DNA of 64,000 nucleotides from Phyllosticta citribraziliensis (GCF_038025025.1 NW_027117347.1:1798001-1862000); one strand, 5' to 3'; counted from the stretch's first letter, positions 5,778-24,242 are shown. The notes: generated by a model not told the origin, from the letters alone. A program made the numbers and translations.

Positions 5778-6606
5778 GGCGGGCGTGTTGGTGGGACGAG
5801 ACAGAGTGGGTGGGATTTTCGTTGGAGGCGTGGTTGGGTGCGTGGTCAGTTGGCCAGCAGCCGAGCGGACGAAATTGGCGGTGTTGGTGTGGGAGCGGGG
5901 TGGATTGGGCTGGGCTGACTGGTGGTTGGCATGTGCAAGTGGGCGGAGTGGAGGAAAGGGAGCGGAGACTTGAGGGTGCGAGGAAAAATCCGGGTGGCCA
6001 TTGCGGGGACCCTGGTTGAGCGGCGTGGCCTGTGCGCGCGAGGTTATTTGGACGACATGCAACTCTTTGTTACCCACCGTCCCCTCTTAAGTCTCGATTC
6101 GACATGCTATCGAATGCTCCTTCTCTGCTTCATGCCCCAAGGCTCTCAGACTACTTTGGTACCTTTGAATTGCATGAGTACTTTCCCCTAGCTGTCGTAT
6201 TCAATCACAAGATGAGGTACAACTCCAGGTCGCATCACGGCTACAGTCATCGTCGCCGAGAAGCAGCGTGTCTGCGGCAATGTGTTGAAGTGGAAGCTGC
6301 ACAGTTTTGTTAATTTCGTGGGAATCATATCATGGATTGGTTCCAACACTGGCTCCACGCCCGCCCGTTTTCTTTTCTGCGCCGTCTCCCAAATAAACCA
6401 CCTTTTGACTGTCGTCCCGAATTATGCGCCGCCCTTTCCCGACCGCTGAAGTTTCTCAAGAGCTCAAAGGTGTGAATGAATCGCGGCTTAAGTGGTGTGC
6501 GGTAGTCTTCATTGCGCCGTTCGTGTTGGAGAGTTTCGGTTTCTTCTGCTTGTTCATTAGCGATAAGGTCGCGCGAAGGGTGGTTCTCGAAATTCCTTAC
6601 AGCCAT

Positions 6607-7122
6607 TTATACTTCCGTTACTTTTTTGAGCCCCCTTTCCTCGGCCAACTTGACCATTTGAGCCTGGATTTCATTGAACTTCGCTTCGGCTTTGGCAAAG
6701 CTCTCCTGGATCGCCTTGAGCTCTCTGACCGCTTTCTTGTGGTCCTCCTTCGCGACATTGAAGTCGTAATTGGCATTGACGACGTAGCCAGAGCACAGGG
6801 AGACGACGCGCATGGCCTCGAAGACGTTCTCATCGTCGCCGGTGTCCTTGGCCGCTTGGATCCGCGCGCGGCTGCGAGCAAGCCAGGCTTCGTGTCGCGA
6901 GTCTGCCCTGGTCTTGAGAAACCTGGCGTGGCGCTGCTTCTCTCGACATTCGGTAGTCTTTTCGGCAAGCTTCCTCTCGAGATCGGCGGCGACGAGGGAC
7001 GCCTCGGTCATCTTGCAGTAGATGATCTGGACCTCGCTCATCTCGGAGTAGTCCTGGGTGGTCTCGGCAATTAGTCTTGCTTCGAGAGAGATCGATAGAT
7101 GGAGACTTACGGGAGAAGACAT
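6607..7122 (-). CDS. Small coiled-coil protein of unknown function (MxxP family member 1)
   Basis: 171-aa ORF. Likely in-frame intron 7110-7054 (GTAAGT..ACTAAT..CAG) after MSSP. Similar by eye to the genes at 7675-8165 and 18106-18625. Confidence 0.75.
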   Translation of the reverse strand: MSSPVSLHLSISLEARLIAETTQDYSEMSEVQIIYCKMTEASLVAADLERKLAEKTTECREKQRHARFLKTRADSRHEAWLARSRARIQAAKDTGDDENVFEAMRVVSLCSGYVVNANYDFNVAKEDHKKAVRELKAIQESFAKAEAKFNEIQAQMVKLAEERGLKKVTEV

Positions 7123-7203
7123 CTTGAGGAGAAGGAGAGTTCGTAGGGTGGTGACCGTGAAGTTGTTGGAGTGGAGAATGAGCTGAAAGGCGAGGTCGCG
7201 AAG

Positions 7204-7314
7204 CAGATTCGTCGAAGAGAAGGCTGGCCGCGAAGAGATCTTTTGCAGAGGAGATTCGTCGCACAGGAGATTCGTCGCAGAGGAGACTCGTCGCAGAAGA
7301 ATTTCGTCGCAAGA
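7204..7314 (+). repeat. Degenerate 16-bp minisatellite (consensus GAGATTCGTCGCAGAG), ~6-7 units, upstream of the 6607-7122 gene
   Basis: Units at 7204, 7235, 7251, 7267, 7283 and 7299 read directly. Confidence 0.8.
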
Positions 7315-7674
7315 GTGATCGGATCAAAGCAGTGGAGTGGAGTGGTGACCCGACCCAGCGCGCGACCGGATTATTTTTATACAGGGTGCGAATGTTGCGC
7401 CCGCAGCGACTAACCGCTTTGGATATACTGAAGTGAATGTGGTTTTGCCAATGCCTTGCCAGAAAGTGCTTTTTCACATTTGGGAAAGCCGGCCGGCGCC
7501 AAAGCCTTGGGGTTGAGCTTGCCGCCCACGGATCTACCATACAGGCGGCCATTTCGTTGCCCTCGTTGGACGCGTCCGCTTGTCCTCGCGCAAAAGAGAA
7601 GGAAAATTGCTGCATTTAAAAGGCACCGGCATCCATCCCCTCCGTCTACTTTTCTAGAATGAGTAGTCCATGTC

Positions 7675-8165
7675 TCATTCGACGTCACCGTCCGAGCCCT
7701 CCAACTCCTTCAACTTGTCCTGCACATCCTGAAGCTCCTTGCACGCCTCCTCGTACTCCCTCAACGCCTCCTGCTCATCCAACCTCGCATCAATGAAGTA
7801 CTGAGAGCACTGCGAGTTGACGCGAATCATGTCGGCGATTTCGGCCGGGCTGTTGTGGCGGAAGACCCTCCGGGCGCGGGCTTGACTGCGCGTGAGCCAG
7901 GCGTTGAACTGCGAGGTGGCGCGCGCTTGGTACAGCTCGAGGCGCCTCAGCTTGTGGACGACGTGCAGCTCGGCCTCGTCCTTGCGGTAGCGGAGCTGGC
8001 TGAGGAGCGACCTCTTGTTCTCAAGGGCTTTGGTGATCGCGGTGGCCTCGGTGGTCTCGTGTGCGATGGTGATGTCTCCGCCGGGCTTGATCTGAGGCTA
8101 CAAAGTGTTAGCTTTGTCTCTTTCTGAGCACTCAAGAAAGAATGAACACTCACAGGAGTGGCCAT
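7675..8165 (-). CDS. Small coiled-coil protein of unknown function (MxxP family member 2; not called as a full ORF in the track)
   Basis: MATP, then intron 8153-8098 (GTGAGT..GCTAAC..TAG), then PQIKPGG...LYQARATSQFNAWLTRSQAR...EYEEACKELQDVQDKLKELEGSDGDVE* with TGA at 7677-7675. Confidence 0.78.
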
Positions 8166-8657
8166 TTTGAAGTGGTTGATGGTCCGAATGGCTGGATCGC
8201 GTTCTCAGCGTTTGTGGGTTGTTTGGCTGTGGTCGGAGAACGGCGAGACGTGCTTAATGGTTAGGCTGGCCGCGCGTGTTCTCGGCGCAGAGATTTGAAG
8301 TGGGATCAGACAAGGAGCATTCATTTGACTAGACTGATGACCGTTGAGGGACAGTTGAGTAAGTCTTGTCAGAGGATGCAACGGTGATAGGGAGCATTTA
8401 CTTGCTTCACTTGACGATCTAGGATGAAAAACCAAGCACAATCACTCATCTTGAGACATGGGAGTAGGGAGTATCCAAATGAGTTGGCGCACCGAAGGGG
8501 GGATAGTCACAGTGGGAACTGAACGAGGCTTACATGTCTCGAAGGGACAGCGGGAGTGGGTATTCGAGTATGTTGACAAGTCCGAAAGGACGGTAACATG
8601 GAGCATTTGAGATGGCTCACATTTGCTCAAGGGATTTTGAAAGAAAGTAATCATACT

Positions 8658-9674
8658 CTAACTCTTCTGCAAATTACTCTCAGAATCGTACACCTGCACG
8701 ATGGTCATCGCTGGGGCAGCGCTCGCTATAAGGTTCGAAATCACGTCAAAACGCTTGGTGGCTCTGACCACCCCTTCTTGAGCCTCTCTTGCCTCTTCCT
8801 TTGCCTTCATCGCTTCCTTGGAAAGCTTCAAACCCTTTTTCTTGCCTGTTGCCTTTTGCTCCGTGGAATCCGCACGTTCTTGATACAGCTTGACCAAGGT
8901 CATCATGACGTTGCCTTCCTCCCGTATTTTCGCGAGTTCTGCTCGGAGTCTATCGTGAATGGCTTTCTCCCCTTTGATCCAGGCCGCTAGACCTTGACTC
9001 TTTTGTGGATTGGACAATCCCCATTGTTGGATCAGGCTGAAAACAAAATCGTCGTTCGTCTCTGGCGTCTGCCCTGGGAGTTCTGGCACAAGGTGGGATG
9101 GAGCTTCTTCAACCGTGGGTTCCGGTGGCACGTTCTCACCCACAAGCTCGGAATTGTCTTGGGGAGGGCTGGATGGCGCGTCTTCGACCGTGGGTTCTGG
9201 TGGCACTTTCTTTTCCGCAAGCTCAGGATTGTCTTGGGAAGAGCTAGATGGGACGTCCTCGACTGTGGGTTTTGGTGGCACTTTCGGCCGAGGTGGCGGC
9301 AGCATCTTCGTTGTGGGACTCATTGAACGCGGTGCTGAGTCGTCCGCCTTGTTGAGTGCAACTCCGCCATCAGAATCGTTGTAAGGTATTTCGTTGACCG
9401 TGCGGCTGGTTGAGACATTGTAGACCCTGGACCAGGGAAGTATTTCGTCTTCCGAATCGCTGGCTGAGTTCTCAGATTCTTCCGCGTTATCGAGTGGAAC
9501 TCCTCCCTCCAAATCGATGGGTGAGATTTCTTCAACTGTAGGGCTAGTTGGGGCCTTGTACACCCCAAAGGAGGGTGGCAGTTTGTTGTACACAGGGCTG
9601 CGCGGGCTCTGGGAGTCGTCAATCATTTGGCGAAAAAGTGAACTATTTCTCTGCGGACTTACAGGGCTAGCCAT
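8658..9674 (-). CDS. Pro/Ser/Glu-rich protein with internal repeats and C-terminal coiled coil (probable divergent MxxP family member 4)
   Basis: MASP (alternative ATG at 9683), then in-frame intron 9662-9609 (GTAAGT..ATTGAC..CAG). C-terminal 'LVKLYQERADS' resembles 'LELYQARATS' and 'FLKTRADS' of its neighbours. The 3' end may include further exons. Confidence 0.65.
   Translation of the reverse strand: MASPVSPQRNSSLFRQMIDDSQSPRSPVYNKLPPSFGVYKAPTSPTVEEISPIDLEGGVPLDNAEESENSASDSEDEILPWSRVYNVSTSRTVNEIPYNDSDGGVALNKADDSAPRSMSPTTKMLPPPRPKVPPKPTVEDVPSSSSQDNPELAEKKVPPEPTVEDAPSSPPQDNSELVGENVPPEPTVEEAPSHLVPELPGQTPETNDDFVFSLIQQWGLSNPQKSQGLAAWIKGEKAIHDRLRAELAKIREEGNVMMTLVKLYQERADSTEQKATGKKKGLKLSKEAMKAKEEAREAQEGVVRATKRFDVISNLIASAAPAMTIVQVYDSESNLQKS
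9075..9284 (-). repeat. Three in-frame ~75-bp coding repeats (KVPPxPTVEDxPSSxxQDNxELxxx)
   Basis: KVPPKPTVEDVPSSSSQDNPELAEK / KVPPEPTVEDAPSSPPQDNSELVGE / NVPPEPTVEEAPSHLVPEL. Confidence 0.85.
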
Positions 9675-10072
9675 TTTGGACATTTTAGAGGAAGAAGGAT
9701 GCGTGGTTGTTTGTAAAACTAAAAGACCGAAGGCGGAAGTCCTGAAAATTGCCCCCTCTAGAAGACTGTGCAGCCGTATAGACCGGGATCGATGGTAACC
9801 TTGTGTCCACGATGCAAATACTGGAGTTGAGCGAGTGGCGTAAAGTAATGAAAAATGAATGTTGTGTTCGAACAAGAGCACTGCCTCCGATCGACGGATA
9901 CAAATGTTGAGAAGCGTGCGGTGTGTCAAGGAATCAGACGACCATGAGTGCTGCCCCTTTCCATGTAGCTCTTTGCCTTAACAGCAGGAAGCTGCTCCAG
10001 GTACCGACCAACTAGTCGATGTCAGAACTCACACCTGCCCTGCTTGTACCCTATCTCTCATTCGGAAGGCAT

Positions 10073-13000
10073 CTACTCAGAACCATCGTCAATATCGAAC
10101 CTCTCAGCCTTGAAATCAAGCTGTCCGACCCCTCTGTTCTCCATTATCTTCATTCCACTCTTAGATTGTGTCCATCCGCCCAGATCTTCCTCCTCGTTCA
10201 AGTACACCCCAATTGGCAGTGACGCTCGACCCTCGGGCTCTTGCATCCCTTCATGTTGCGCCACTTCCAAATTGTGGCCCTCACTGTCATGATTCCTGCC
10301 CTCTGGACCACATCCTTCGCAGTAGCTCAGTGGCTTGCCATGTCTCAGCGGCTCCGAGCCAATGAGCACCTTCGCCGGCATTGCTGCGGTTTCGGGGAAG
10401 AAGCGCACGCTCCGTACCGTAGAAGTGGAGGGCAGGAATACAATGTCGCGTGGTTCAGCCACGGTAGGATCTTTTCGTGGTGGGTCTTTTCTGGCGGCAC
10501 TGGAGGGAGTAGCCGAATGCTGTGTCATTTTGCCTTTGCCAAATCCTTCAGGGAATAGGCCAACACGCTGCACATAGACCGCCTTCTCGCTTCGAGTCAC
10601 ATAAAGATACTCTGGTGTCCACGTCAAAGTCAGGGGAAGGCGGCGTACCGGAAACTTTCGCACAATTCCAAGAAGGATCTTTTCCCGGCGAATTTGCACC
10701 GGAACACTACGAGTTGGCCGTTTGTTGTCGAGGCGGTAGGTCGCGACAAACATGGAAACAAGGAGAAAGCCGGAACGGATGTCTATATCGCTTTGCGGCT
10801 TGTTCTTGGTTTTATTTCGTTGCTTTGGCTTGCGGTGGGCTTCGACGGTGGCGATGTGGAGGAATTTGCCACAGGGGGAGAAATGGCACTTGATGGAAAC
10901 CTGGCGGGTATAAGACTTTGAGGGCCTCAGTTTGCGGATAAAGTAAGTTTTTCTCTCGTAGTCCAGGAAGATGATGGTGCTCGGTCCAACAGGCCATACG
11001 ACCAAAGGATGCCTTGGGTGAATAGCAGGTGGAGAGTCAAAGAGTGGCAGGTGTAGGGGTTGTCTAAGCCGGAAGAGATGCTCCAATCCCGACTCTGACG
11101 TCCGGAAAATCTGAATGGATGCCTGGAGGTCTGTCCTTGTCTGCTTTTTGAGGTCTTGGAGTCGAATAGCTTGGATCATTCCAATTGGCAGGGTTTCGTT
11201 ATCGTCGCTCTCGCTGTCGTTCAGAGCGACATATGCCTCCTGGCCGTCAGAGTCATCGTCATGGAATCCCTTGCGGAACCGGGAAAAAATATTGCCTCCA
11301 AAGTCGCTCCCACTGCCCGGCTCTGACTCTGTCCCATCTGTTTGCTCTTCGACGGATGATTCGCTTGAAGAACTGTCGATATGCCCTTTGAAATGCTCAA
11401 GGAAGTTTTCGTCTGGCAAGATATCAGTAGCCTCGCTGGATGCTTCGCTCCAGCTCTCGTCTGCAGAGCTCCAACTATCTTCCGAGCTGATCGATGAGGT
11501 CTTATCGTTATGTCCATTCTCTTCACTGTCGGAACCGCCCTCATCAATGGGCCTTTGCTGCCTCGTCTCGAACAGATCTTGGACGTCCCTAACAGGGTCT
11601 CCATCTAGACCGCTCCTGGAGCCTTTTGTGCTATCTTTTCGACGAGTTGCAACGACTAGGATGCCTGGACGTGTTCTGAACTCCTCAAAGTTGATGGTAA
11701 TACGATCCTTTGGACTGATTCCAGGTTGCTGGGCAATGAACGCTCCCAGATTGTCTTGCACGAAAATAGCAGATCCAATACGTAGACTGCGACAGCCGTC
11801 CTCGAACGCAATCGGCTTCTCCTGGGTTCGCCTGGGACGCACGTCTCGATCTTCGACTGACAGATGAAATTGCCAATTCGCTTTCTCATCGACGTCAATG
11901 AATTGCCTCTTTTGTAAGATTGGAAAGTCTGTATCTTTGAGATTCCACGTCTCGCAGACAAATCGGAGGTGAGACTCTGCTGTGCGAGAACTGAAGCCTT
12001 TATTAGCAGTCACTTTTCTTTGAGAATGGGCCTCATGTGGACGTCTTGAGTCGAACTTACACAAACTGTAACATGTAGGCGAACTCCCCAGAGTCCGCAA
12101 AGCCATCGTAGCACTGAAATGTATTTTGAATGCTTCCAGGCTCGTTGCTTCCCAGTACGAAACTTTTGTATCGGCTTGACAGCTGAGACGTGAAACTATC
12201 TCCGCCCAAAGCATTGAACAAACATCTGTCTATCTCCCCTGGTAGTAGTGGGTTGATCGAATGGATACAATGTGGATTATCGCAACACCCACACTTGTAG
12301 AGATAGGACCACTCGTGGATGAATTCTCGATAATTCTGGCGTATCTGGTGCGCCTGGACTTCGGTATTCCATGGCGCGAACCGCTGAGGGTTCACCTTGC
12401 CTAGGGATAGTTTGTTGTAGGGCATTTCGCTGACCTGTAATTCCGAAAAGTGGCTTGCGACGAATTTGTACTGGAGGTGGGTCTGGTAGTTCGTTGAATC
12501 AAGGAAGCGAGACGCAAGGCTCTGTAGGTCTGGCGTTTGCTCAACTGCGTCAAGATGTCTCTTCCAGTATTTGGCAGAGTAGCGCAAGAAACCGTCCGAT
12601 TCGATAGATTCCCCGTCTGCTGTTTTCCACTCTCCATCGCGGAGTTTCAGGGGTTCCTTGAACCTCGGGTCGGAGAGGTAACGGACGCACACTTCAGCCA
12701 AGTGGTACTCTTCGATAGATGCGGTCGCGGTGGTTGAGGCGCCGTCTAACAGTATGTCAGGTCGGGAAATCAGAAAAGACTTTACTGTGGCATGAAACAA
12801 CTCGCAGAGAGGCGAATCGTCAATGCCAGTGTCCGTTGTCAAAATGAATGGAGGTAGAAGGCTTTCCAAAAGCAGTCTGTTAGGTCCAGCATCTGGGTCT
12901 TTTGATTCGGAGCTTTCCATCATGCAAAGTGCGTCTTTGAGCTCAGCGACTGAGACTCGACGCCGGGAGAAGCATACGATCGACAGGATTTTGCTGCAAC

Positions 13001-15095
13001 TACTGTTAGAACGATCAGGAATAGGAGATGATAGAAAGACCTTGCAATATCTCGATCCTTGCTCTGGTACGTGCGAGTGAACAGATGACTGTAGTAATCA
13101 TCTGGGGTCCAAGAGCTGCTTGTCTCCATAAACTGGCGGACATCTCGGCGGCTTCTGCGATTGCATACGTCGTCGATCATCAAACGAGCACAAAGGAAGT
13201 TTCCTCTGGCGGCGTCCCTTAAGTTCTGTGTCAGTTTGTCCAGGTCGTTCTGGCTGAGCTCAAACTTTTCGAACTTGGAGCGCTCTCTTTCAATGAATGA
13301 CTGCAGTGCCATTGAATTCTGGTCGCTCAGGCGGAGATGCACGTGGGACACCCTTTGGGCCTGCGTGAGGATGCCTTCACGGTCTTGACTGGAAACCCAA
13401 ACACGCACAGTGCCTTTCGGATTTGCGCTCGCCAAGGAGATCAAGCGGTTCAGTGCAGAGTCGGGACCATGAATGCTCCTTCTCTCTGGCACGTCTTCGT
13501 CGACCCCATCGATGAAAATGTACGTTCTCGAAAAACCGGCCGTTTCGATGATGGCACAGATCATCTTGACAATATTGTTCATCTCGTGCTTCGGGGTGTC
13601 CAAGAGATTTTGAATTGGGGGTGAAATGTCCTGTTTTGTTTTCCAAAGCCGCCTGAGCAGTTGAAGAGCGACATTCTGAAGCGTCTCCACCTCGGTGACT
13701 GTCTCGTCGAAGCGGTAGGAGAAGTATGCGACGGCTGGTGGCAGAGACATTTGCTTCATTCTCCGAACTAACTGAGAGCAGAGCACTGATTTTCCAGCAC
13801 CATGCTTCGCAGTCAGCCACATAATCGGATGCACAGTCGAGTTTGCGGTCCAATCCTGAAATTCCGGCGTGTGGTCGATCCAGTCCGATGCTTCCACAGG
13901 GTTGAGATCGAGGTGAGATGACTCTGTGCGCTCCACGAGTCCTTCAGAGGTACCGTCTCCAAGCCACTTTCTGGCAGATTTGTACAATTTCTCTTGGAGA
14001 ACGTCAGTCAGGAGCCAATGTGGTCTTGAGGTGGGGTTACGTTTGTCTCTTTCTTCCTCCCGCGCACGACGATTCATCATGTCTTTTACTCCGCCCAAGC
14101 GCGTGAAGCTTCTCTCATGTTGGTCAATCTTTTTGACCACTTCGTCAAAGTCACGCGTAGCTGAAGGGAGAAACGTCTTCGCCCAAAACTGCAACGCTTC
14201 AAGTTTGTAAGCATGGAGAATTTGCATCGGAATTCATCACTCACTGGGTCGTTTGCACTCTCTCCAGACAAGCGTACAAAATTTGACAACATTGAAACAT
14301 GAGTTGTAGAGTGCATCCCTTACTGAGTTGGAATCTCGGAAGAGGGCTTCGTATTTGTCGATCAGGTCGAGGTGTGTCTTGATGCGATCGAAATGCTCCC
14401 TGAACGTCTCGAGAATCTTCACTGCCCGATCCACGCTCTGGAGGACTTGATCAGCGCCTTCCAAATTTGAAGAAGATATCAACGGGTCAGTTACGAACGC
14501 TGATGACAATTTTCAAGCACCCCCAAATGATCGCACTTGGTGTTGGATCAGCCTGACAGATTGTGTCGATCACATTGTAGTGTCCGGTCAGGAATTCGAT
14601 GACGGGCTTGACGAATCGAAGGATGATTTTGGTTGACTTCTTGTCTGACGTTTTCCCCTCCTCGTTTTCTATCAGAGCAAGGAATGATTGTCTACTGACG
14701 GGGCCCTGTCTTTTGATTGTTTCGAGTTCGGCCAAAAGCTCTTTATCTTTTTTTGGGTCGCAGATGTTTCTTGCGTAATCATCGACAGCAGTCTCGAATA
14801 TCCTGATGGCCCCGGAAAACAGTCAGTCGGTTTGTCTGGGGAAAAGTAGGGGTCGAGGCTGGATAGCAAAAGTCGTGGCACGCGCGATCCAGAGTATCTG
14901 CGAATCAGGGCTTGAATGCTCCCTATGAGGTGTCGGCAAAGGCATACAGATGCTCCTATATTGACCTCTGATTTTATTGTGTGCCACGACTTTTGCGAAC
15001 TGGCCTTTGATGCTGCAAAAACGGCCTCACCTGCTGTTGGAAAAGGAGCCGCCGCCCGATAGGGAATTCGGGTTCGGGAAACCGCCAAATTTCAT
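10073..15095 (-). CDS. Large multi-exon NACHT (STAND) NLR-like protein: helical N-terminal domain, NACHT, long acidic/beta-rich C-terminus of unknown type
   Basis: Exons 14487-14735 ('VIDTICQADPTPSAIIWGCLKIVI'), 14237-14509, 12920-14227 (Walker A AKHGAGKS, Walker B IFIDGVDE, 'ARGNFLCARL'), 12057-12923 ('FLRYSAKYWKRH') and 10073-12214 can be joined by GT-AG introns without frameshifts. The exact start is uncertain; candidate ATG at 15095. Confidence 0.8.
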
Positions 15096-15626
15096 GATGT
15101 CTCAGTTGCGCAGTGAACATGGCCGGCTCGCCAGCCTTTTTTCTTTCTCATCTGGGCACACATACCTGAAGAAAAGGATCCGCAGATGCGCAGCAACGTG
15201 GGGCTTGGCGTCAGCGCGCCACCTTTTGATTGCTGTAATCGATGCCGTCTGAGCCTCAAAGCGGGGGTTGTGATCGCGCAACTGCCGCGATAAGCGGCTC
15301 TTTGGAGCCTGGTGGTGGGGGCCATGTCATTCAGCCTTGTTGTGGACTACGTGGTTGACTGGATTTCGATGAATGAAGATTTGAATGGCGTCTTTTGGAG
15401 CAATTGATTGGATAGAAGGGTTGAGCGTGTGGCAGAAATACAGCCTACAGCTCGCATTTACGATTTTGCGTGCAGAATCGCGTTGCGCACAGCCACCGAT
15501 GATATCGAGAGCCCCCAAAGTTTCGGCCTTAAGGAGCTCGCAGAGCGCTCTTGAATGATCAGTGTGCCGCCGACTGAGACACCTGTCCCCCACAAGCGAT
15601 CAATTCTCGATACCTCTGTCTCCATC

Positions 15627-17839
15627 ATGTCAGGAGAAGCAACAGGAGCCAGGGAAAGAAGTGATTCAAACGTCGAAGAAGTGAAGCGCATCAAGCGCGT
15701 GGACAAATAGTACTGTGACCGCTACCCGCAAAGTGATGGAGCTAACACAATGCGACAGCTTTGATTAGTAAGAGCGAACTCAAGATATTTGTCAGATACC
15801 TGTCTAACGGTTGATTGAAGTCGTACCTTTACGGAAAAGCAGAGGACATCGGCCAAGCCGCAGAAGAAAGAGCACAAGAATGGATTAGTGCTTGTTGTCC
15901 GAAGACACATAGGCGAAAAGGGGCGCCTGTCAAAGACAGACGTCGCAATCACCAGTCCAGCGTTGGCCACCGTTCTGGAGGAGCTTAATCCAGAAGTGGA
16001 AAGCTTGGAGCAGCTGGAGCCTCCTGTGGTATGTGCGATCCCGGGACTCTGTGCGTTTTGTGGGCTGAAACTGTGCAGGCCGATCCAGTGCTCTTCTACC
16101 ACTCACGCGGTGGACTGAACGACAGACTCCAAACTGAAAAGTCGAAAGACGATCGAAACGATGCACTGATCGATGCACTCGAAACCGCCCTTGAATACAT
16201 CCAGACTGATGAAGGGGAGACCGCCGCGAACATGGACAAGTTGCTCAGCAGGGGCGAGATAACTTGGGATCTTCTCTGGGCACTGTTCATTCCAGGCCGC
16301 CTTGTTTACCACTACCACGAGCTGACGCAACAAAAGCAGCTGGTTCGCTTCCGGAAGATGACCCAGAAAATGGATTATGGAGAAAGTCGATCGATGTACT
16401 GGAGTCTTGATTGCGACATGGTGGTTTTTGACGGTGAGAAGTTTGGTCTCGCCAAAATTAAGTTCTTCCGAATCCATCAGTACCCAGGAGCCCAAAGAAT
16501 CGTCGACCTTGTGGCATACCCATTGGAGTTTGTTGAGAACAAGGACGAGGTCTTCAACCATGCCGTGGCTCGAGGTATGCGCTATTCTGGCATCAGAAAA
16601 GCAACATACGTGGATTGCGACGGGCCCGCAATGAAGGAGATACTCAACGAAGACCTCAAAGAGAAACAATTCACCTTCCCAGTAAGCGAATCCCAGAATT
16701 TGCCTACGAAGCGTGTTGACTGGATGATAAGGCGTTCGGGAGGGCGATGATTGACGCAAAAAGCTTTCGGACATTCGAGCCCAACGCTACTTACAATTAC
16801 AACGTTTATAAGCAGCTGGCACCGGATCTCGACAGCGAGCTGTACGCGATTTGTAGTCCTGTCGTTATGGGATTCAGCTTTGGCACGAAGCAATGGGGTA
16901 AGTACCAGTAAACAAAATCACAGGGAAGCTTTGTTGAACGTACGCAGGCGGCCTGGGCATGGACTACTGCCATGAAGTCGCGTGGGGCAACGAATGCTTC
17001 CGTGACCTGGTGCTTGACCAAGACAAAAAGACGCTGGTACAAGCATTGGTGACACAACACAGCTCGAAGACCTTTGATGACATTGTTGCGGGAAAGGGGA
17101 AAGGGCTAATTGGGCTGCTGTGCGGCAGGCCCGGATGTGGTAAGACACTGACGGTAGAGGCGATCTCAGAGGAGACACGAAAGCCTTTATACGCTGTCAG
17201 TGCAGGCGAGCTTGGCACAAACCCTGCTGATGTTGACAAACGCTTGACCGAAGTTCTTGAGTTGGCAAGGCGATGGGGCGCAGTGCTTTTGCTTGATGAA
17301 GCCGACGTTTTCCTGCAACGCCGAAGCGACGCAGACATCGTGCGGAATTCGTTAGTGTCGATCTTCTTACGCCAGCTCGAGTATTACAAAGGGATTTTGG
17401 TACTCACCACGAATCGGATCGGCGCATTCGATGATGCCTTCGAAAGTAAGACATCCTTCCAACGAAATCGCAGTGGTGGCTGACAATCGCAGGTCGAATT
17501 CATTTCAGTCTCTACTATCCCGATCTCAACGCCGATTCCCGCAAGCAATTGTGGTCTTCGTTTCTTAAACGACTCAAAAGGGAAGCGCAGCTTGAGGTCC
17601 GCATCGATGCTGCTGAGATTGACGAACTCGCGCAACACGATCTCAACGGGAGGCAAATCAAGAACATCATCAGCAATGCTCTTTCAATTGCACTCCACGA
17701 GGGGTCTTCGAATGTCCGAATAGGTCACATCAGCACAAGTCTCAAGGTCCTCTGGGACTGGAGAAAGGCGGTGGAGCAAGAGGCGCCAGCGAGTTCTGCT
17801 TCTATTCCGGAGACTAAGACTGCCGGCCTAGCCTCGTAG
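15627..17839 (+). CDS. Fungal AAA+ ATPase with extended N-terminal domain (DUF7025/AAA type)
   Basis: 'EITWDLLWALF', 'DDIVAGKGKGLIGLLCGRPGCGKT' (Walker A), 'VLLLDEADVFL' (Walker B), 'LVLTTNR', 'LNGRQIKN'. ATG 15627. Several introns, including a 9-nt microexon at 15759-15767. Confidence 0.9.
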
Positions 17840-18105
17840 ACAGCACGGGGATATTGAGGGCCCCAGGCGTTATTGCACGTTTTATTCAGTTAGAACATAG
17901 CTATATTTCGAATTAGCGTCGTCTTGTCGAAGATGTGCGACTTACCTCCTAGAGCTACGCTTTGATGAAGAACAGGACAATTGAAGGCTCCCAAGTTTTG
18001 TGTCCGATGAGCTTGAAAGGGGCGGTTTTGATTCACCTAACAGCAGGCTGATCTTGAACAGCGACCGCTTCCACTCCTGTATGCTCCCAGGGCCTTGACC
18101 TGTGT

Positions 18106-18625
18106 CTACACCTCCTCGCGCTTCGCAATGTATTTCTTCAAGACGCCGATGATCTTCTGCGCATTTTTGAGCCGTTGCCGGATAATGCTCAAGTCTCTCA
18201 CCACCTTGTTGTACTCCTCGGCGGCTTCTTTTGCCTCCAGCTCGGTCTTATCCACAAAGTTCCTGACCATTCGAACGACATGCACTGCTTCACAAATCTG
18301 GGTGTGGTCACCCGTTCTTTCGGCGGTATCGAGGTGTGCTCTCATGCGAGTGCGGCAGCTGGTTTTTCTGTTGCGTGCTTGAGACTCCAGAAATTCGGAG
18401 TGGGCCTTCTTGGTTGTCAGAAGTCGGGTCGTCTCGTCTTCCTTGGATCGGAGTTGAAAAACGAGTTTGGCTTGCTGCGTCTTGAAGCGCTTCGCTCGCT
18501 CCAAACAAGAAGCACATGAGCTCGCCGGCAAGGTTTTGACTTTCTTCTGCTGATTGCGCGCCTTCGTTAGCACAGTCTGAACGATTTCAAAAGCTGCAAT
18601 GCTGTTGGCCCACCGGGCGGACCAT
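18106..18625 (-). CDS. Small coiled-coil protein of unknown function (MxxP family member 3)
   Basis: MVRP, then intron 18613-18550 (GTGGGC..GCTAAC..CAG), then QKKVKTL...HSEFLESQARNRK...TGDHTQICEAVHVV...EEYNKVVRDL. Aligns with the 6607-7122 product. Confidence 0.7.
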
Positions 18626-19643
18626 TTCCGAACCCCAGCATTCGCAACACAAGTAGCGAGCGACCGGAGAAAGCGCCGCAAGACAAAGACGACGCGAAAA
18701 CGCCAGCAAAATGAAAAGGTGAAGGTGTTGGCGGCAAGGCGCTGCGTGGTGGGCGCGCAGGTGGAGGTTGTTGACTGCGACGAGCAGGCGGCGAAGTCGC
18801 CAGTAGATGGCAGCAACACCACCGGCCATTGTGTGAAGCTCTCCTACAATGTGAAGTGAAACCATGTGAACGTCGAGCGTGTGCGAAAAGAAAGAATGAG
18901 TCGTGGCCAACCTGGATTCGAACTTGAAGCCAAACTCGCCCACCAATGCGGCAAGCTGTAGTAAATTACTTGGTCACATAAGGCTCGAATTGGATTGTTT
19001 TCGTGATAAATTAATCGAGGCCCAGGTGATTGATACCCGGCTACATAGGACGAGAATAAAGTAAAGCAAGCAGCAGGACAATACCATCACTCCTCGTCTG
19101 GCCGAGGAAAGAGGACGAGAAGACGGAAGGACAACAACATTCTTCGGCTGGCCAAGGAAAACAGAAGACGAGATGGTGAAAAGCAAAAAAAAAAAACTCT
19201 GTAATCAAGCAGCGCTAAGATTGAATCCTTAAGCCCAAATTCCAAGCTGAACTGAAGCAACTCAAATCCCTCGAGCGCACTGCTTGACGATCGTGCGCCT
19301 ATGCCACCGGCCGTCCTGGTACCGCCGGGCAACTCCTTACCCATATCTTGAGGAAGGGCTGACCAGGCCGTTTCCCCGCAATACAGTTGAGTAATTCATT
19401 ACAAGTGGTTATGAGGGCGACTTGTGGTCACCAGTGCCCCCAGCGCCAGACCTCGCTAACCCGAAGGCGCTATCCAACTCTGCCACTCTGCCATAGACGT
19501 AGGTTTGCTGCGGCGTTTGCATTTAAATGCTGCGCTGATTGTCTGCCTGCATTTCGGACACAGGCTCGGAAACACTCAAGCGTCGTTGAGGGAAAGTGGC
19601 CGGGAGCATTCAAGGCCGAGACTAAGCAAATAATAAAACGATT

Positions 19644-22600
19644 TTAACTAACGGACCTCGTCAGCTTAAATGTCAGTTGATCTGGACACGATCCCCCGAG
19701 ACCCGCCAGCTCTGTCTTCATCAACGTCATAGTTGCAGCCACCTTGCCCTTGTGTGCCTCAATTATGCCATCATAGAGCGCAAATATCTCCTTTTCGCAA
19801 GCTTCCTCTTTTCCGAGAACTAATCGGACCGACTGATCGTATGAGACGTGCCCAAAAGCTAATTGATCACTAGTCATGTCAATGTACCCTTCGAATATGG
19901 GCCCATTGTCAGCCGCTTCGACGTTGGAAGAATCAAGAGTGAGGGAGAATCCGGCGTCATCACTGGGAACATGCCAGCGCCCGTAAAGACCTTCAGCATC
20001 AACCATTTCGCCTCCAGCCTCAGCAGCGTCTAGAATGACTTCTCCCTCGTGTTTCTTTCTAGGGGGTGCAAGGGCACTATGTCGCAGTAGTAGCCTAGCA
20101 ACATCCATAGATCCCGCTCGGAAGGCAGCAAGAAATACCTCGGGCTGGTCATAGGCGAGATCGGCGTTGTGCCCGAGAAGAAACTCGACCACTTTATAAT
20201 GCCCACGTATGGCTGCGTTGCCAATGGGCGACAAATTGAACGCATCCAACCCTGACAAAGGGGAACCTGCTTCAACAAGCATGGAGACATCCTCCACTAA
20301 ACCATCATAACAAGCGAGATGCAATGCCGTTCTGCCGAATTTTGTTGTCTGAGTAGGGTCCGCATCAAAGCTCAGCAGCAATCGAATCATTTCCGTCGAT
20401 GACGCATCCGCGGCTGCGATCAAGGCGTTTTTGTAATAGCCCCCTGCTTGATTTACATCCGTTCCATTTCGGAGCAGGTATTCAGCAATGTCAAGGCTAC
20501 CTCCGTGAGCAGCCGCTTGTAGTGGGAATCCGTACAATCCGCCTTCTGCATCCAGGCTAAAGCCCATTACATGCCAACATTTGACAACATCCGTGAGCCC
20601 AAGGAGGGCAGCATAGTATATCGGGCTGGGATTCATAATCTTTCTTTTCACATTCCACCACAAAGGCCAATCTTCCCCGCAATGGTCAGTTATCTCAACC
20701 TCCCATGCCCAGTGTTTCCAATTTGATGATCTTAAAAGCTTTGACTCATATTCAAGGACATCAAGTGGCCTTTCAGTTTCCAAATAGACGTGTTTGAGCC
20801 AATATCCAGCAGCGTACACAAGGAACGGATAATTGCGCCATTGGAAATAATGAGGGGGCGGGAGTGTGGTGACGGGTTGCTCGAAGCTTTCTCGTGAAAA
20901 TGTCATGTTCAAGTCCTCGCCTTGCTTTCTGTCTCCAAAGCAATCAAAGCACAGATACCACAAGCAATGCCGACCGAGATTCATGTTCTCGCGGGCTGGG
21001 TCTGAGAAATCCGGCCACTCGACGGGATCCTGATGTGGTCGTAGAAGATACTCTTTGACCGAAAAATGGACAAAGTGCACAGTTCTTGTGTCAAAGTCCC
21101 ACCCTTGAGCGGTAACAAGTGATCCACAGGGTCGTTTGATGACATTTTCGAAAAAATCTTCATCGACACGGCCATCGACCCAGCAGGCTGGAAGCTTCTC
21201 TTTCGGGTATACTGAGCCTTTGTCTTCTGACTCCAGTATAAGGGCTTCCGCAAGCTCAGCCACGGTCAGCGGTCGGACAGCGTAAAGAACCCATCGAAAT
21301 ATGGCGGCGACACGGTCTCTGTCTCTCTTCAAGACTGATTTATGGAAAATCTTAGAGAGTTCCTTTTCATACAGCTGATCCATGCCTAGCGGCATCTCTT
21401 CCATGATGTTTTCAAGCTCATCTTCCGAGCAGGACGAGGACTGGATCTCTTCCTGCAAAAATCGTGTCCAGAGAAACATGCCATCGGATTTGTTGCATGC
21501 CTGATCTATCAACCGCGCGTGCAGTTGCTCGCTGTTTGGATGGGTTGACTCGAGAATTTCTTTGGAGTATGCGCGGATATCCGGTGTTGTGTCTTCAGGA
21601 GTGATCTGATGTTCGTAGAGTTTTGCGTCATTGGAGGAAGTGAAAGCGCTCAAGCCCTGCCTGATGTCGGGTATGTCTCTGCTGACAACAAGCACGCGTG
21701 CAGATGTTCCTTTGATGCTCTCTTTCAAATCTTGCAGAAATGTCTCCCTCGCCTTACTATTTCTCCATTTGATACTCTTGTCGACAGAAGAGCACTCGTC
21801 GAATCCATCTACAACAAAGGTAGTCTCATCAAGCACTTTTGCAATGCTCGTTACCAGTGGCCAAAGTCTCGAATTCGAGGACGGGTCAGCGTGGCTAGCC
21901 CCGCTAAGCAAGATTTTCTCCGCCGCTGGGATCGTTTCATCGCTCTGGTCGATCATCTGTGCAATCCAGGAGCGTAGGATCGCGTTGGTATCGTGCGATT
22001 TCTCAGAGTCAGAGGCAAAAAAATAGGCGACGCGTCTTGGAAACTTGTCGAGCAAGTAATCGACCACTCTCGCGGAGAGAATGGTCTTGCCAAAGCCGGG
22101 AGGGCCCTGAATCCACAATACCTGAGCTTGGTGAGGTCTCTCGGAGATCCATTCTTGGAACATCTTGGTGTCAAGGATCCAGTTGCAGGTGTCCCCGAAG
22201 CGCTCTCTGCGCGCTTGGTCGAGTCGCGCGTCGGTAGAGGGAGCATTCAGATGTTGTAAGAGCTTCTCACGTCTCGCTTTGACACCAACCAGTGATTCTT
22301 TGATCGGACTGATGTCAGCGTGGAGCGTTCCTACACCAGCTTGGATTGATTCAAGCGCCGCCAAGCTATCTTTTCATTGTGAGCAGAGTACCATGTGGAA
22401 TTCGATCATCCCATACCTTCTTGTGCGACCTTGTCAGAGAGGACATTAGCTGTAGTCTCATGTTCTTTGATGCTTTTCAAAAAGTCCGACGTTCTGTTCG
22501 TGTCTTCAGAAAAGCTGCGAAGCCATCTCTCTATCTTCACATTAGAGAAAGAATACCACAGCCATGATTTCTAGCGGACTGACTTGTTCTACTCTTGCTG

Positions 22601-23195
22601 TAGTACACACGGGCACCAAGCAAATACTTGAGAATTGAAATGTAAAGATCGATGATTGCCGAAGAAAGTTGTTCTTTGAGGTTGCTTTGATTCTTGAAAG
22701 ACATCTTCTCGATTTCGGCAAAGGTGGCGGCAGTCTTCGACACGATTTCAACACCCTCGCGCATCTGTTTGAACTTGTTCACATCGTTTACTGTTGCCTG
22801 CACGATGATGCGTCAGACCTAAGCGTCCAGATTTCGCTGGAGATGCTTACTTGAAGTATAAATCCCACGGCTGCCCAGGGAATCGACGCGTACCCTGGAG
22901 CGAGGGATATGGCAGCATCGCCAAGGGCTTTGAACTTCGTGATATGTCCGGCAATACTCGCGAGCGAGTCCTGGAGTTTGACTTCTTCGCCATCGTCTCT
23001 TGTGTATAGGACATGATCCTTGCTCTCGCAACGGTCAATTTGGGCCTCGATATCGGACAACAGGTTTGGCAGCAGCAACGATCCAGGCTGAAGGGTTTTC
23101 GAGATTTGTGTTTGTTCTGCTTTGGTGAGGTGTTGGAATGCTTCCTCCCAGCGTGAAGCAGGCCACGGCGGGCCGCCTGTGTCGACAGGTGGCAT
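19644..23195 (-). CDS. NACHT + ankyrin-repeat NLR-like protein with helical N-terminal domain and an extra C-terminal beta-rich domain
   Basis: N-terminus 'RWEEAFQHL..ASIPWAAVGFILQ', Walker A GPPGFGKT, Walker B FVVDGFDEC, 'SDGMFLW', 'VHFSVKEYL', ankyrin repeats 'GFPLQAAAHGG', 'NALIAAA', 'GRTALHLAC'. The 5' exons can be joined by GT-AG introns. Confidence 0.92.
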
Positions 23196-24242
23196 TGCGA
23201 TTGCTTGATCCCGAAGCGAACTGGACGACTGCGGCTCCGCAATATAAGAGCGGTTCTCCGACGGTTTTGGGGTCCAAAAGGCGGGCGCTTTGAAGCGTGC
23301 TGCGCAACCGAAGGCCCTGTTGCTGACTCCACAGTCCCCACACCGGACCAACACCGCCCTATCGAAAAGAACGCTGATTGCTCCGGCTATCTTCGAACGT
23401 TTGCAGATCCAAGCGATGTAGGCTGACGGAGAGAGACTTAGTGCAGGTATGTATTGGCTGATAAGGGCTACACGCGCGCACGCGCACACGAAAAAGGACC
23501 CGCAGCGCCTATCAAAAGAGAAAATGACTCCTGCAACTGCGACCGCACGTAAGAAGGCCCAACACACGATCAAAGTTGCGCCTTGGGGCTGCAATCTGTT
23601 GAAGCCAGGTCCGGTTGGTGCGCTGTCGCTCAGTGCCATAACTGCGCTTCCGGGGCTTTGATTTGCTGCCACAACCGTGCCTAGAAATTTTCAGGCTCCG
23701 ACGTACGCCGCGACGCAAATAAACTACTGGCCGAGCCGTTACTGATCAGTGTCCCACTCCACTTAGACGTCGACGTCTCGAAATCACCTTGGCTGACGGC
23801 ATTTGGGCCCTTCCAAATTGCGTTTGCGGTATTCTGACGATCGCGCCATCGCCATATTTTCGATTGCAGCGTGAAAAGCAGCGATTTCGGCTCGAGAATG
23901 CGGGAATCGACAGATTGGACAAGAAGGAAAGGTTGAGAGCGAGTCTATATGAACAAGGGGGTGGGTCCCCATAAACGTGTCTATCGTAGATATACAGGGC
24001 AGAGAGTCCAAAGCAAATCGTTCAAGCCGTCAAAACGAGTCCGTCTATGCTTCATTGACCCCCATTCGTCGCAGTCAATGCCGACGCCCATGGCCCATGA
24101 ACCGAGCGCCGAAAACGCCATGCTGTTGCACTTGCAGTCTAAAGCCAGTCCCGAAGAGAAGAGAGGTCGAAGAGGAAGATGAAGAAGGGAAGAAACTGGA
24201 AGGGTATCGATGAAAAGCAACGAGCAATGCCAATCACGTCCT

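Follow-up and report, generated by a model that had tools for sequence, protein, structure and literature searches.

Four minus-strand genes, named g1 to g4 here, lie in a 64-kb window of Phyllosticta citribraziliensis (NW_027117347.1; the window is the whole stretch of 64,000 nucleotides analysed, and its numbering is used throughout), and each of them opens with a coding exon of only 12 nt that is followed at once by a short implied intron. Three of these genes (g1, g2 and g4) are, as judged by sequence comparison, true paralogues encoding predicted helical hairpin proteins, so that the window holds three detectable members of the family and not the four of the original prediction, which had been made from the DNA letters alone. 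The four predicted starts (MSSP at 7122, MATP at 8165, MASP at 9674 and MVRP at 18625) were read from the sequence and confirmed, and the gene models are as follows.

6607..7122, minus strand: g1, hairpin family member of 152 amino acids, identical to deposited protein P0001; exon 1 7122..7111 (MSSP), intron 7110..7054 (57 nt; GTAAGT...ACTAAT...CAG), exon 2 7053..6607 including the stop codon.
7675..8165, minus strand: g2, hairpin family member of 144 amino acids, identical to deposited protein P0007; exon 1 8165..8154 (MATP), intron 8153..8098 (56 nt; GTGAGT...GCTAAC...TAG), exon 2 8097..7675 including the stop codon.
8658..9674, minus strand: g3, neighbouring gene of 320 amino acids without detectable family membership, identical to deposited protein P0011; exon 1 9674..9663 (MASP), intron 9662..9609 (54 nt; GTAAGT...TTGAC...CAG), exon 2 9608..8658.
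18106..18625, minus strand: g4, hairpin family member of 151 amino acids in the originally predicted model; exon 1 18625..18614 (MVRP), proposed intron 18613..18550 (64 nt; GTGGGC...GCTAAC...CAG), exon 2 18549..18106 including the stop codon.

The kinship of g1, g2 and g4 is evident in both pairwise and profile comparisons. BLASTP aligned g1 with g2 at E 3e-11 (28% identity over 92 residues), g1 with g4 at E 4e-10 (31% identity over 85 residues) and g2 with g4 at E 0.021, in agreement with the three alignable cores that had been noticed beforehand, and pairwise identities of 22–31% are likewise in keeping with the earlier description of an old, highly diverged paralogue cluster. A control profile was built solely from relatives in other species (P0003, P0004 and P0008) and compared with the 990 six-frame open reading frames (ORFs) of at least 40 amino acids. 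It matched g1 at 2e-32, g2 at 3.7e-16 and g4 at 2.5e-15, whereas the next ORF stood at 0.96 and the best reversed-sequence control at 0.18; the similarity among the three is well beyond coiled-coil composition. The conserved part comprises g1 residues ~41–120, the turn-adjacent half of the predicted hairpin, and includes the motifs EAWLxRxRARIQ, a DTGD turn and EAxRV. Mean pairwise BLOSUM62 scores per 10-residue block range from 0.71 to 1.79 across residues 41–120, as against 0.07–0.85 across residues 1–40 and 0.04–0.53 across residues 121–150, and conservation is thus lowest at the open ends of the hairpin (g1 numbering).

The remaining gene, g3, had been counted as a fourth member through a shared LYQERADS string, and that membership could not be upheld. 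BLASTP of g3 against g1 returned no significant match (E 1.5), hhalign of g3 against the family returned probabilities of 0.12% and 0.07%, and the g3 ORF was absent from the matches of the family hidden Markov model (HMM) among the six-frame ORFs of the window even at E≤10. The LYQERADS string was rejected as a sign of kinship, being a chance-level match of 10 columns. It is nevertheless conceivable, if doubtful, that g3 is an extremely diverged or chimeric fourth member in which the ancestral 12-nt exon, the intron and a C-terminal hairpin were kept, a disordered, proline-rich stretch was inserted and the sequence became too different to be recognised. Its start (MASP and then a 54-nt phase-0 intron) is one of only four matches in 64 kb to the pattern described below, it directly adjoins g2 on the same strand, and AlphaFold2 predicts that a disordered, proline-rich region (residues 1–190) precedes C-terminal helices at 205–258 and 268–300 (predicted local distance difference test, pLDDT, up to 94), which would again form a hairpin, although a shorter one than that of the family. 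Against such a descent stand not only the failed comparisons but also the placement of the LYQERADS string, which lies ~8 residues before the turn in g3 and ~22 before it for the similar string in the family, and the fact that much of the nucleotide likeness of the g3 start region is Kozak and splice-site consensus. By these comparisons g3 is a separate gene that has the same start architecture and no detectable sequence kinship with the family. It also contains a 75-nt tandem repeat (2.5 copies, 9096–9285) that encodes 25-residue proline-rich units, and its orthologue in P. citrichinensis (P0012) is 24 residues shorter, which fits one repeat unit fewer.

The start architecture itself is regular. 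A GT directly follows the 12-nt first exon (ATG plus nine bases) in four of four genes, and the implied introns are all phase 0 with CTAAT, CTAAC or TTGAC-type branch sites 9–20 nt upstream of the AG, so that the signals of the 54–64-nt introns foreseen in the original prediction are present in every case. These introns are similar to the RNA-confirmed introns of 47–70 nt in adjoining genes. The RNA evidence comes from two runs, X1 and X2, the type of which was assumed; their contigs mapped to 6400–19000 skip GT..AG introns and are therefore cDNA-like, and the g3 intron (9609–9662) is skipped in contigs of both. The consequences of retaining the intron differ among the genes: the g1 and g3 introns are open and multiples of three, such that retention still yields a protein; retention in g2 breaks the frame and leaves the ATG out of frame with the conserved ORF; and the main ORF of g4 has no methionine upstream of the homologous core and therefore needs the intron. 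In g3, a further in-frame ATG at 9683 offers an alternative start (MSKMASP).

The pattern ATG-N6-CCN-GTRRG occurs four times on both strands of the 64-kb window, at exactly the g1–g4 sites, against 0.39 expected in shuffled sequence and with 0 of 100 shuffles reaching four, a contrast to be read in the knowledge that the pattern was defined post hoc and that three of its four sites belong to paralogues. The looser pattern ATG-N9-GTRRGY occurs nine times in the window against 3.1 expected. Among relatives, an M-x-x-P start is present in g1 and its orthologue, in P0003, in g2 and in g4, and is not kept in two P. capitalensis proteins as annotated (MAST... and MAVL...).

The model of g4 differs from those on deposit. 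The two deposited models, P0005 (202 amino acids) and P0010 (228 amino acids), begin at an upstream ATG, share with the 151-residue model the 5' splice site that follows MVRP, and splice to other 3' sites. Their N-terminal extension from the ATG at 18828 (18613–18828, minus strand) consists of 68 residues, is rich in Cys, Arg and Leu and has no counterpart in the paralogues; it looks like translated 5' untranslated region (UTR). Only in the 151-residue model does the acceptor have a branch site at the usual spacing, and the length of this model is like that of the paralogues; for both reasons we prefer it to the deposited ones as the probable gene structure. The G+C content at third codon positions (GC3) of the hairpin genes is 0.66–0.86 in a region of GC 0.50–0.55, which is a coding signal. 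A 16-nt tandem repeat (4.2 copies, 86% match, 7245–7311) lies 120–190 nt upstream of the g1 ATG, presumably in the promoter or 5' UTR.

The deposited hypothetical proteins of P. citribraziliensis already include the products of all four genes, and the word "undescribed" in the original prediction consequently applies to the family only insofar as neither Pfam nor a paper covers it. Across seven members, no Pfam model matched more than one, and none fell below E 0.009, in line with the absence of a recognisable domain that had been reported earlier, and a profile search of the PDB returned no sequence match, its best row (0.036) being a designed helical construct. A literature search gave no paper on DUF7025, a domain of a neighbouring gene, and among the matches listed for Phyllosticta and NACHT no title concerned these genes. 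A phmmer search with g1 across 1.84 billion representative proteins gave six matches at E≤1e-3, all of 140–202 amino acids; Phyllosticta is the name on the query's own record and on each of the five matches that were looked up, which come from three species. A word-index search added a fourth species, P. citrichinensis, through P0002, a g1 orthologue that is 83% identical, so that the family spans P. citribraziliensis, P. paracitricarpa, P. capitalensis and P. citrichinensis. Judged from these matches the hairpin family is real and lineage-restricted, having so far been seen, among the proteins searched, only in Phyllosticta. One metagenome locus (L001, the single confirmed case of 479 pattern matches, alignment A4) was rejected as a chance pattern match; it is a high-GC bacterial contig, and what matched there is the C-terminal end of a large ORF resembling a membrane transporter.

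The predicted fold of g1 is one long antiparallel two-helix coiled-coil hairpin with helices of ~65–70 residues. AlphaFold2, run with a 7-sequence alignment, placed the helices at residues 6–75 and 78–143 (pLDDT 87.3, predicted template modelling score 0.66), which accords with the helical hairpin suggested at the outset. The proteins of g1, g2 and g4 are hydrophilic (maximum 19-residue hydropathy ≤0.91; grand average of hydropathy -0.64 to -0.79), with isoelectric points of 7.7, 5.9 and 10.1, respectively, and none of the three shows a signal peptide or membrane segment; they are read as soluble.

The original prediction had offered two known classes for such a hairpin, ESCRT-III/PspA-like or HeLo, and neither could be assigned: Foldseek against the PDB with the g1 model found nothing at E≤1e-3, and Pfam gave no match. 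In ESCRT-III, PspA and Vipp1 a hairpin is followed by further helices that mediate polymerisation. The long alpha-helical hairpin core is indeed a point of likeness, as PspA residues 1–144 align with g1 in VIA-align at a Z of 9.9, a value within the noise range for helical models, and Vipp1 appears in the Foldseek list. However, the Vipp1 rows reach a TM-score (query) of only 0.38–0.48 with E≥0.028, none of the seven members matches an ESCRT-III, PspA or Vipp1 Pfam family at E≤0.1, and the g1 model has only two helices in its 152 residues and lacks the additional post-hairpin helices; an ESCRT-III/PspA assignment was not adopted for these reasons. HeLo and HeLo-like domains, the pore-forming effector domains of fungal NOD-like receptor (NLR) systems, are recognised by a HeLo-type Pfam match and a hydrophobic N-terminal helix. 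A HeLo-type effector was rejected, there being no Pfam match and the N-termini of g1, g2 and g4 being polar, within the low hydropathy already given. The best Foldseek rows belong to the inter-SH2 coiled coil of PI3K p85, axonemal proteins, Vipp1 and YscO. The p85 domain resembles g1 in being an antiparallel two-helix coiled coil (TM-score 0.71–0.79 on the query) and serves as a binding platform, but the matches have E≥0.012 and 11–13% identity, and the domain is flanked by SH2 domains in p85 whereas the Phyllosticta hairpin is a stand-alone protein. In the ESM Atlas, the best scores (0.80–0.84) were below lead level.

The hairpin genes are situated among genes for signal transduction ATPases with numerous domains (STAND) and for an AAA ATPase. 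Pfam places the following three between and around g1–g4, as had been noticed for the NACHT and AAA genes.

10073..15095, minus strand: NLR1, a NACHT (NPHP3_N-type) STAND gene (Pfam NPHP3_N 8.3e-23, NACHT 4.3e-05).
15627..17839, plus strand: a DUF7025-AAA-AAA_lid_13 ATPase gene (Pfam DUF7025 1e-22, AAA 5.3e-18, AAA_lid_13 4.6e-09).
19644..23195, minus strand: NLR2, a NACHT-ankyrin STAND gene (Pfam NPHP3_N 5.6e-31, Ank_2 4.6e-31, NACHT 3.3e-09).

NLR1 shares the strand of g3, g2 and g1, immediately precedes them and has six introns with RNA joints. Its first coding exon (15095..15031, 65 nt) encodes a 21-residue peptide rich in Gly, Asn and Ser, and is followed by a 228-nt intron whose joint is present in X2 only (14803–15095, minus strand); the remainder of its N-terminal domain has no Pfam match at E≤0.01. 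The DUF7025-AAA gene is divergent from NLR1 and convergent with g4, and its introns are supported in both runs. It contains a 9-nt coding microexon (15759–15767, plus strand) between introns of 49 and 53 nt; exactly these nine letters stand between the joint sides in both runs, and the frame stays open (...VDK-YFD-YRTFTEK...). In the divergent promoter region between NLR1 and this AAA gene, contigs stop at loose ends (14854 and 14885). NLR2 is directly upstream of g4, again on the same strand. GC is 0.50–0.55 across 6–24 kb, as against 0.58–0.64 in the flanks, where an ankyrin-containing ORF and MFS, VTC, MutS, ATG7 and other conserved genes are found, such that the housekeeping genes lie outside this island. 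Across the window as a whole two low-GC patches stand out (6000–24000 and 38000–44000; 0.48–0.55 vs 0.55–0.64 elsewhere), the first of which contains the NLR, AAA and hairpin genes and the second a HET-domain ORF (39047–40915, Pfam HET 3.7e-29). One report describes small NLR clusters as common in Sordariales (PMC12258605).

The presence of an AAA gene between the hairpin sub-clusters, taken with the structural matches, raises the idea that the hairpins serve the neighbouring hexameric ATPase as substrates or as stalk-like partners, much as FliJ, YscO and the central-stalk hairpins of rotary ATPases enter ATPase rings. In VIA-align, run on 48,161 chains, the best matches were CT670, a YscO homologue (Z 13.0), YscO itself (12.9) and FliJ (11.1) (PDB 3k29, 4mh6 and 3ajw, 130–148 residues aligned), and V-type and F-type ATPase stalk subunits followed at 9.4–10.2, although by the tool's own rating a Z under ~13 for long helices may reflect only a common arrangement. 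YscO, CT670 and FliJ resemble g1 in consisting of a single antiparallel coiled-coil hairpin of ~130–160 residues and little else. They differ in being bacterial, in showing only 5–12% identity at a root-mean-square deviation of 4.2–4.9 A and no sequence relation to the family, and in their secretion-system context, which the Phyllosticta genes lack. Moreover, the dynein stalk and colicins lie within Z 11–13 of the same list, SMC arms are found there as well, unrelated hairpins score 10–12, and Foldseek, as stated, found nothing at E≤1e-3. The neighbouring ATPase belongs to the classical AAA family, which sets it apart from rotary ATPases and from those of type III secretion. On the model available, the structural matches of the g1 hairpin are generic, and a stalk-like role at the AAA ring seems very improbable.

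Taken together, the evidence leans towards g1, g2 and g4 being diverged, Phyllosticta-only paralogues that encode soluble hairpin proteins, share an inherited 12-nt exon and phase-0 intron, act as binding modules and reside in an accessory island; we regard this account as probable, with considerable room for error. Each protein (~145–152 residues) would consist of a single long antiparallel coiled-coil hairpin and would be soluble, and the 12-nt first exon with its short phase-0 intron would have been inherited by all three members. Because the turn-adjacent half is conserved and the open ends are variable, the turn-proximal surface may be what contacts a partner, and the protein would then be a binding module or adaptor and not an enzyme. 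The hairpin genes would stand beside the NLR and AAA genes since all of them share one fast-evolving, low-GC accessory island, and we infer that this co-location reflects the shared island without functional coupling.

Several observations weigh against this account in one part or another. The restriction to Phyllosticta was obtained with single-sequence phmmer and word-indexed searches, and more distant relatives may exist; the word-indexed profile search gave only six proteins, among which the known members P0003 and P0004 were lacking, and so cannot bound the family. The hairpin fold was built on an alignment of seven sequences only, and we infer the binding role from conservation alone. 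The RNA is also less than supportive. Junctions at the 12-nt exons, which had been proposed for all four genes, are borne out at g3, but among the joints listed in X1 and X2 there is no spliced joint at the introns of g1, g2 or g4. An 8313-nt contig of X1 is colinear with the genome across 6400–9608, retaining the g1 and g2 introns and the intergenic DNA, and beyond 9608 it is spliced through g3 and NLR1 (6400–14805, minus strand). In X2, g2 is not covered at all (depth 0) and most of g1 has a depth of 1.85; RNA depth over g4 is ≤2.5. Because rare variants are lost from contigs and transcript ends are not visible in them, a lacking joint or poor cover of g4 does not amount to absence, and the RNA contigs neither confirm nor exclude splicing of g1, g2 and g4. 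The long X1 contig across NLR1, g3, g2 and g1 suggests read-through transcription or overlapping transcripts on the minus strand. At the other end of the array, an X2 contig ends at 6605, two bases past the g1 stop codon (6607–6609), with sequencing-adapter letters continuing from there, and an ATG directly follows that stop codon; the contig end may be the transcript end of the next downstream gene.

Such unspliced, colinear cover of g1, g2 and their spacers in X1, together with the low depths in X2 and over g4, is what one would see if the small ORFs were annotation artefacts within the read-through or 3' UTR RNA of NLR1 and not functional protein genes. This is hard to credit. At the protein level the ORFs are conserved, in a position-specific pattern, across four or more Phyllosticta species, their GC3 is high, and g2 and g4 require an intron to link the start codon with the conserved ORF; the loss of rare variants from contigs means, in addition, that a missing spliced joint proves nothing about its absence.

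The arrangement of the genes is the last point of tension. Each sub-cluster is immediately preceded by a NACHT gene of its own strand (NLR1 then g3, g2 and g1; NLR2 then g4), and this tandem arrangement of NLR and hairpin is not predicted by pure chance co-location; the two tandems leave a functional link between hairpins and NLRs with a low but real probability. In its fullest form, which we consider unlikely, such a link would mean that the hairpins work specifically with the STAND proteins encoded beside them, be it as guardee, decoy, adaptor or effector, and that the cluster is one non-self-recognition unit. The hairpin genes are interleaved with two NACHT NLRs and an AAA gene within 17 kb, with an NLR directly ahead of each sub-cluster; the paralogues are strongly diverged; and one X1 contig spans NLR1, g3, g2 and g1, although a contig across genes is not the same as a single transcript. 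In filamentous ascomycetes, pairs of an NLR gene and a partner gene of the HET-S/NWD2 type signal via a shared short motif, and the small genes described here are similar to these in adjoining a NACHT NLR gene in a filamentous ascomycete. They differ in that no motif common to the NLR N-termini and g1–g4 was found: in blastp and blastp-short, the N-terminal stretches of NLR1 (123 residues) and NLR2 (114 residues) gave a best E of 0.96 against g1–g4, which argues against a common signalling motif such as those NLR–partner pairs use. No fused NLR–hairpin form is among the six library-wide phmmer matches. NLR1 and NLR2 are distant paralogues (E 5e-05, 29% identity over 59 residues), and the arrangement is therefore not a recent duplicated module. 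Finally, the hairpin matches are confined to one genus, whereas NLR-type genes are broadly distributed in fungi. A narrower version, by a slight degree less likely again, would have the hairpins as accessory subunits, particular to this lineage, of an NLR/AAA island for non-self recognition in fungi, with the turn-proximal surface docking on an NLR or being handled by the AAA protein; the hairpins would then be a new class of adaptor or guardee associated with fungal NLRs. For any partnership of the hairpins with the NLR or AAA proteins, it is position alone that speaks at present.

If the account of diverged paralogues within an accessory island holds and the family is only a genus-restricted orphan, it is one more uncharacterised coiled-coil family among the lineage-specific genes of fungi, which would be unsurprising, and it would be useful for curation of the Pfam type and for correction of the g4 gene model. 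To our knowledge, most fungal NLRs are without known partners or triggers. Should it prove true that the hairpins partner the flanking NACHT or AAA proteins, a small dedicated adaptor encoded beside them would provide a tractable handle on fungal NLRs.

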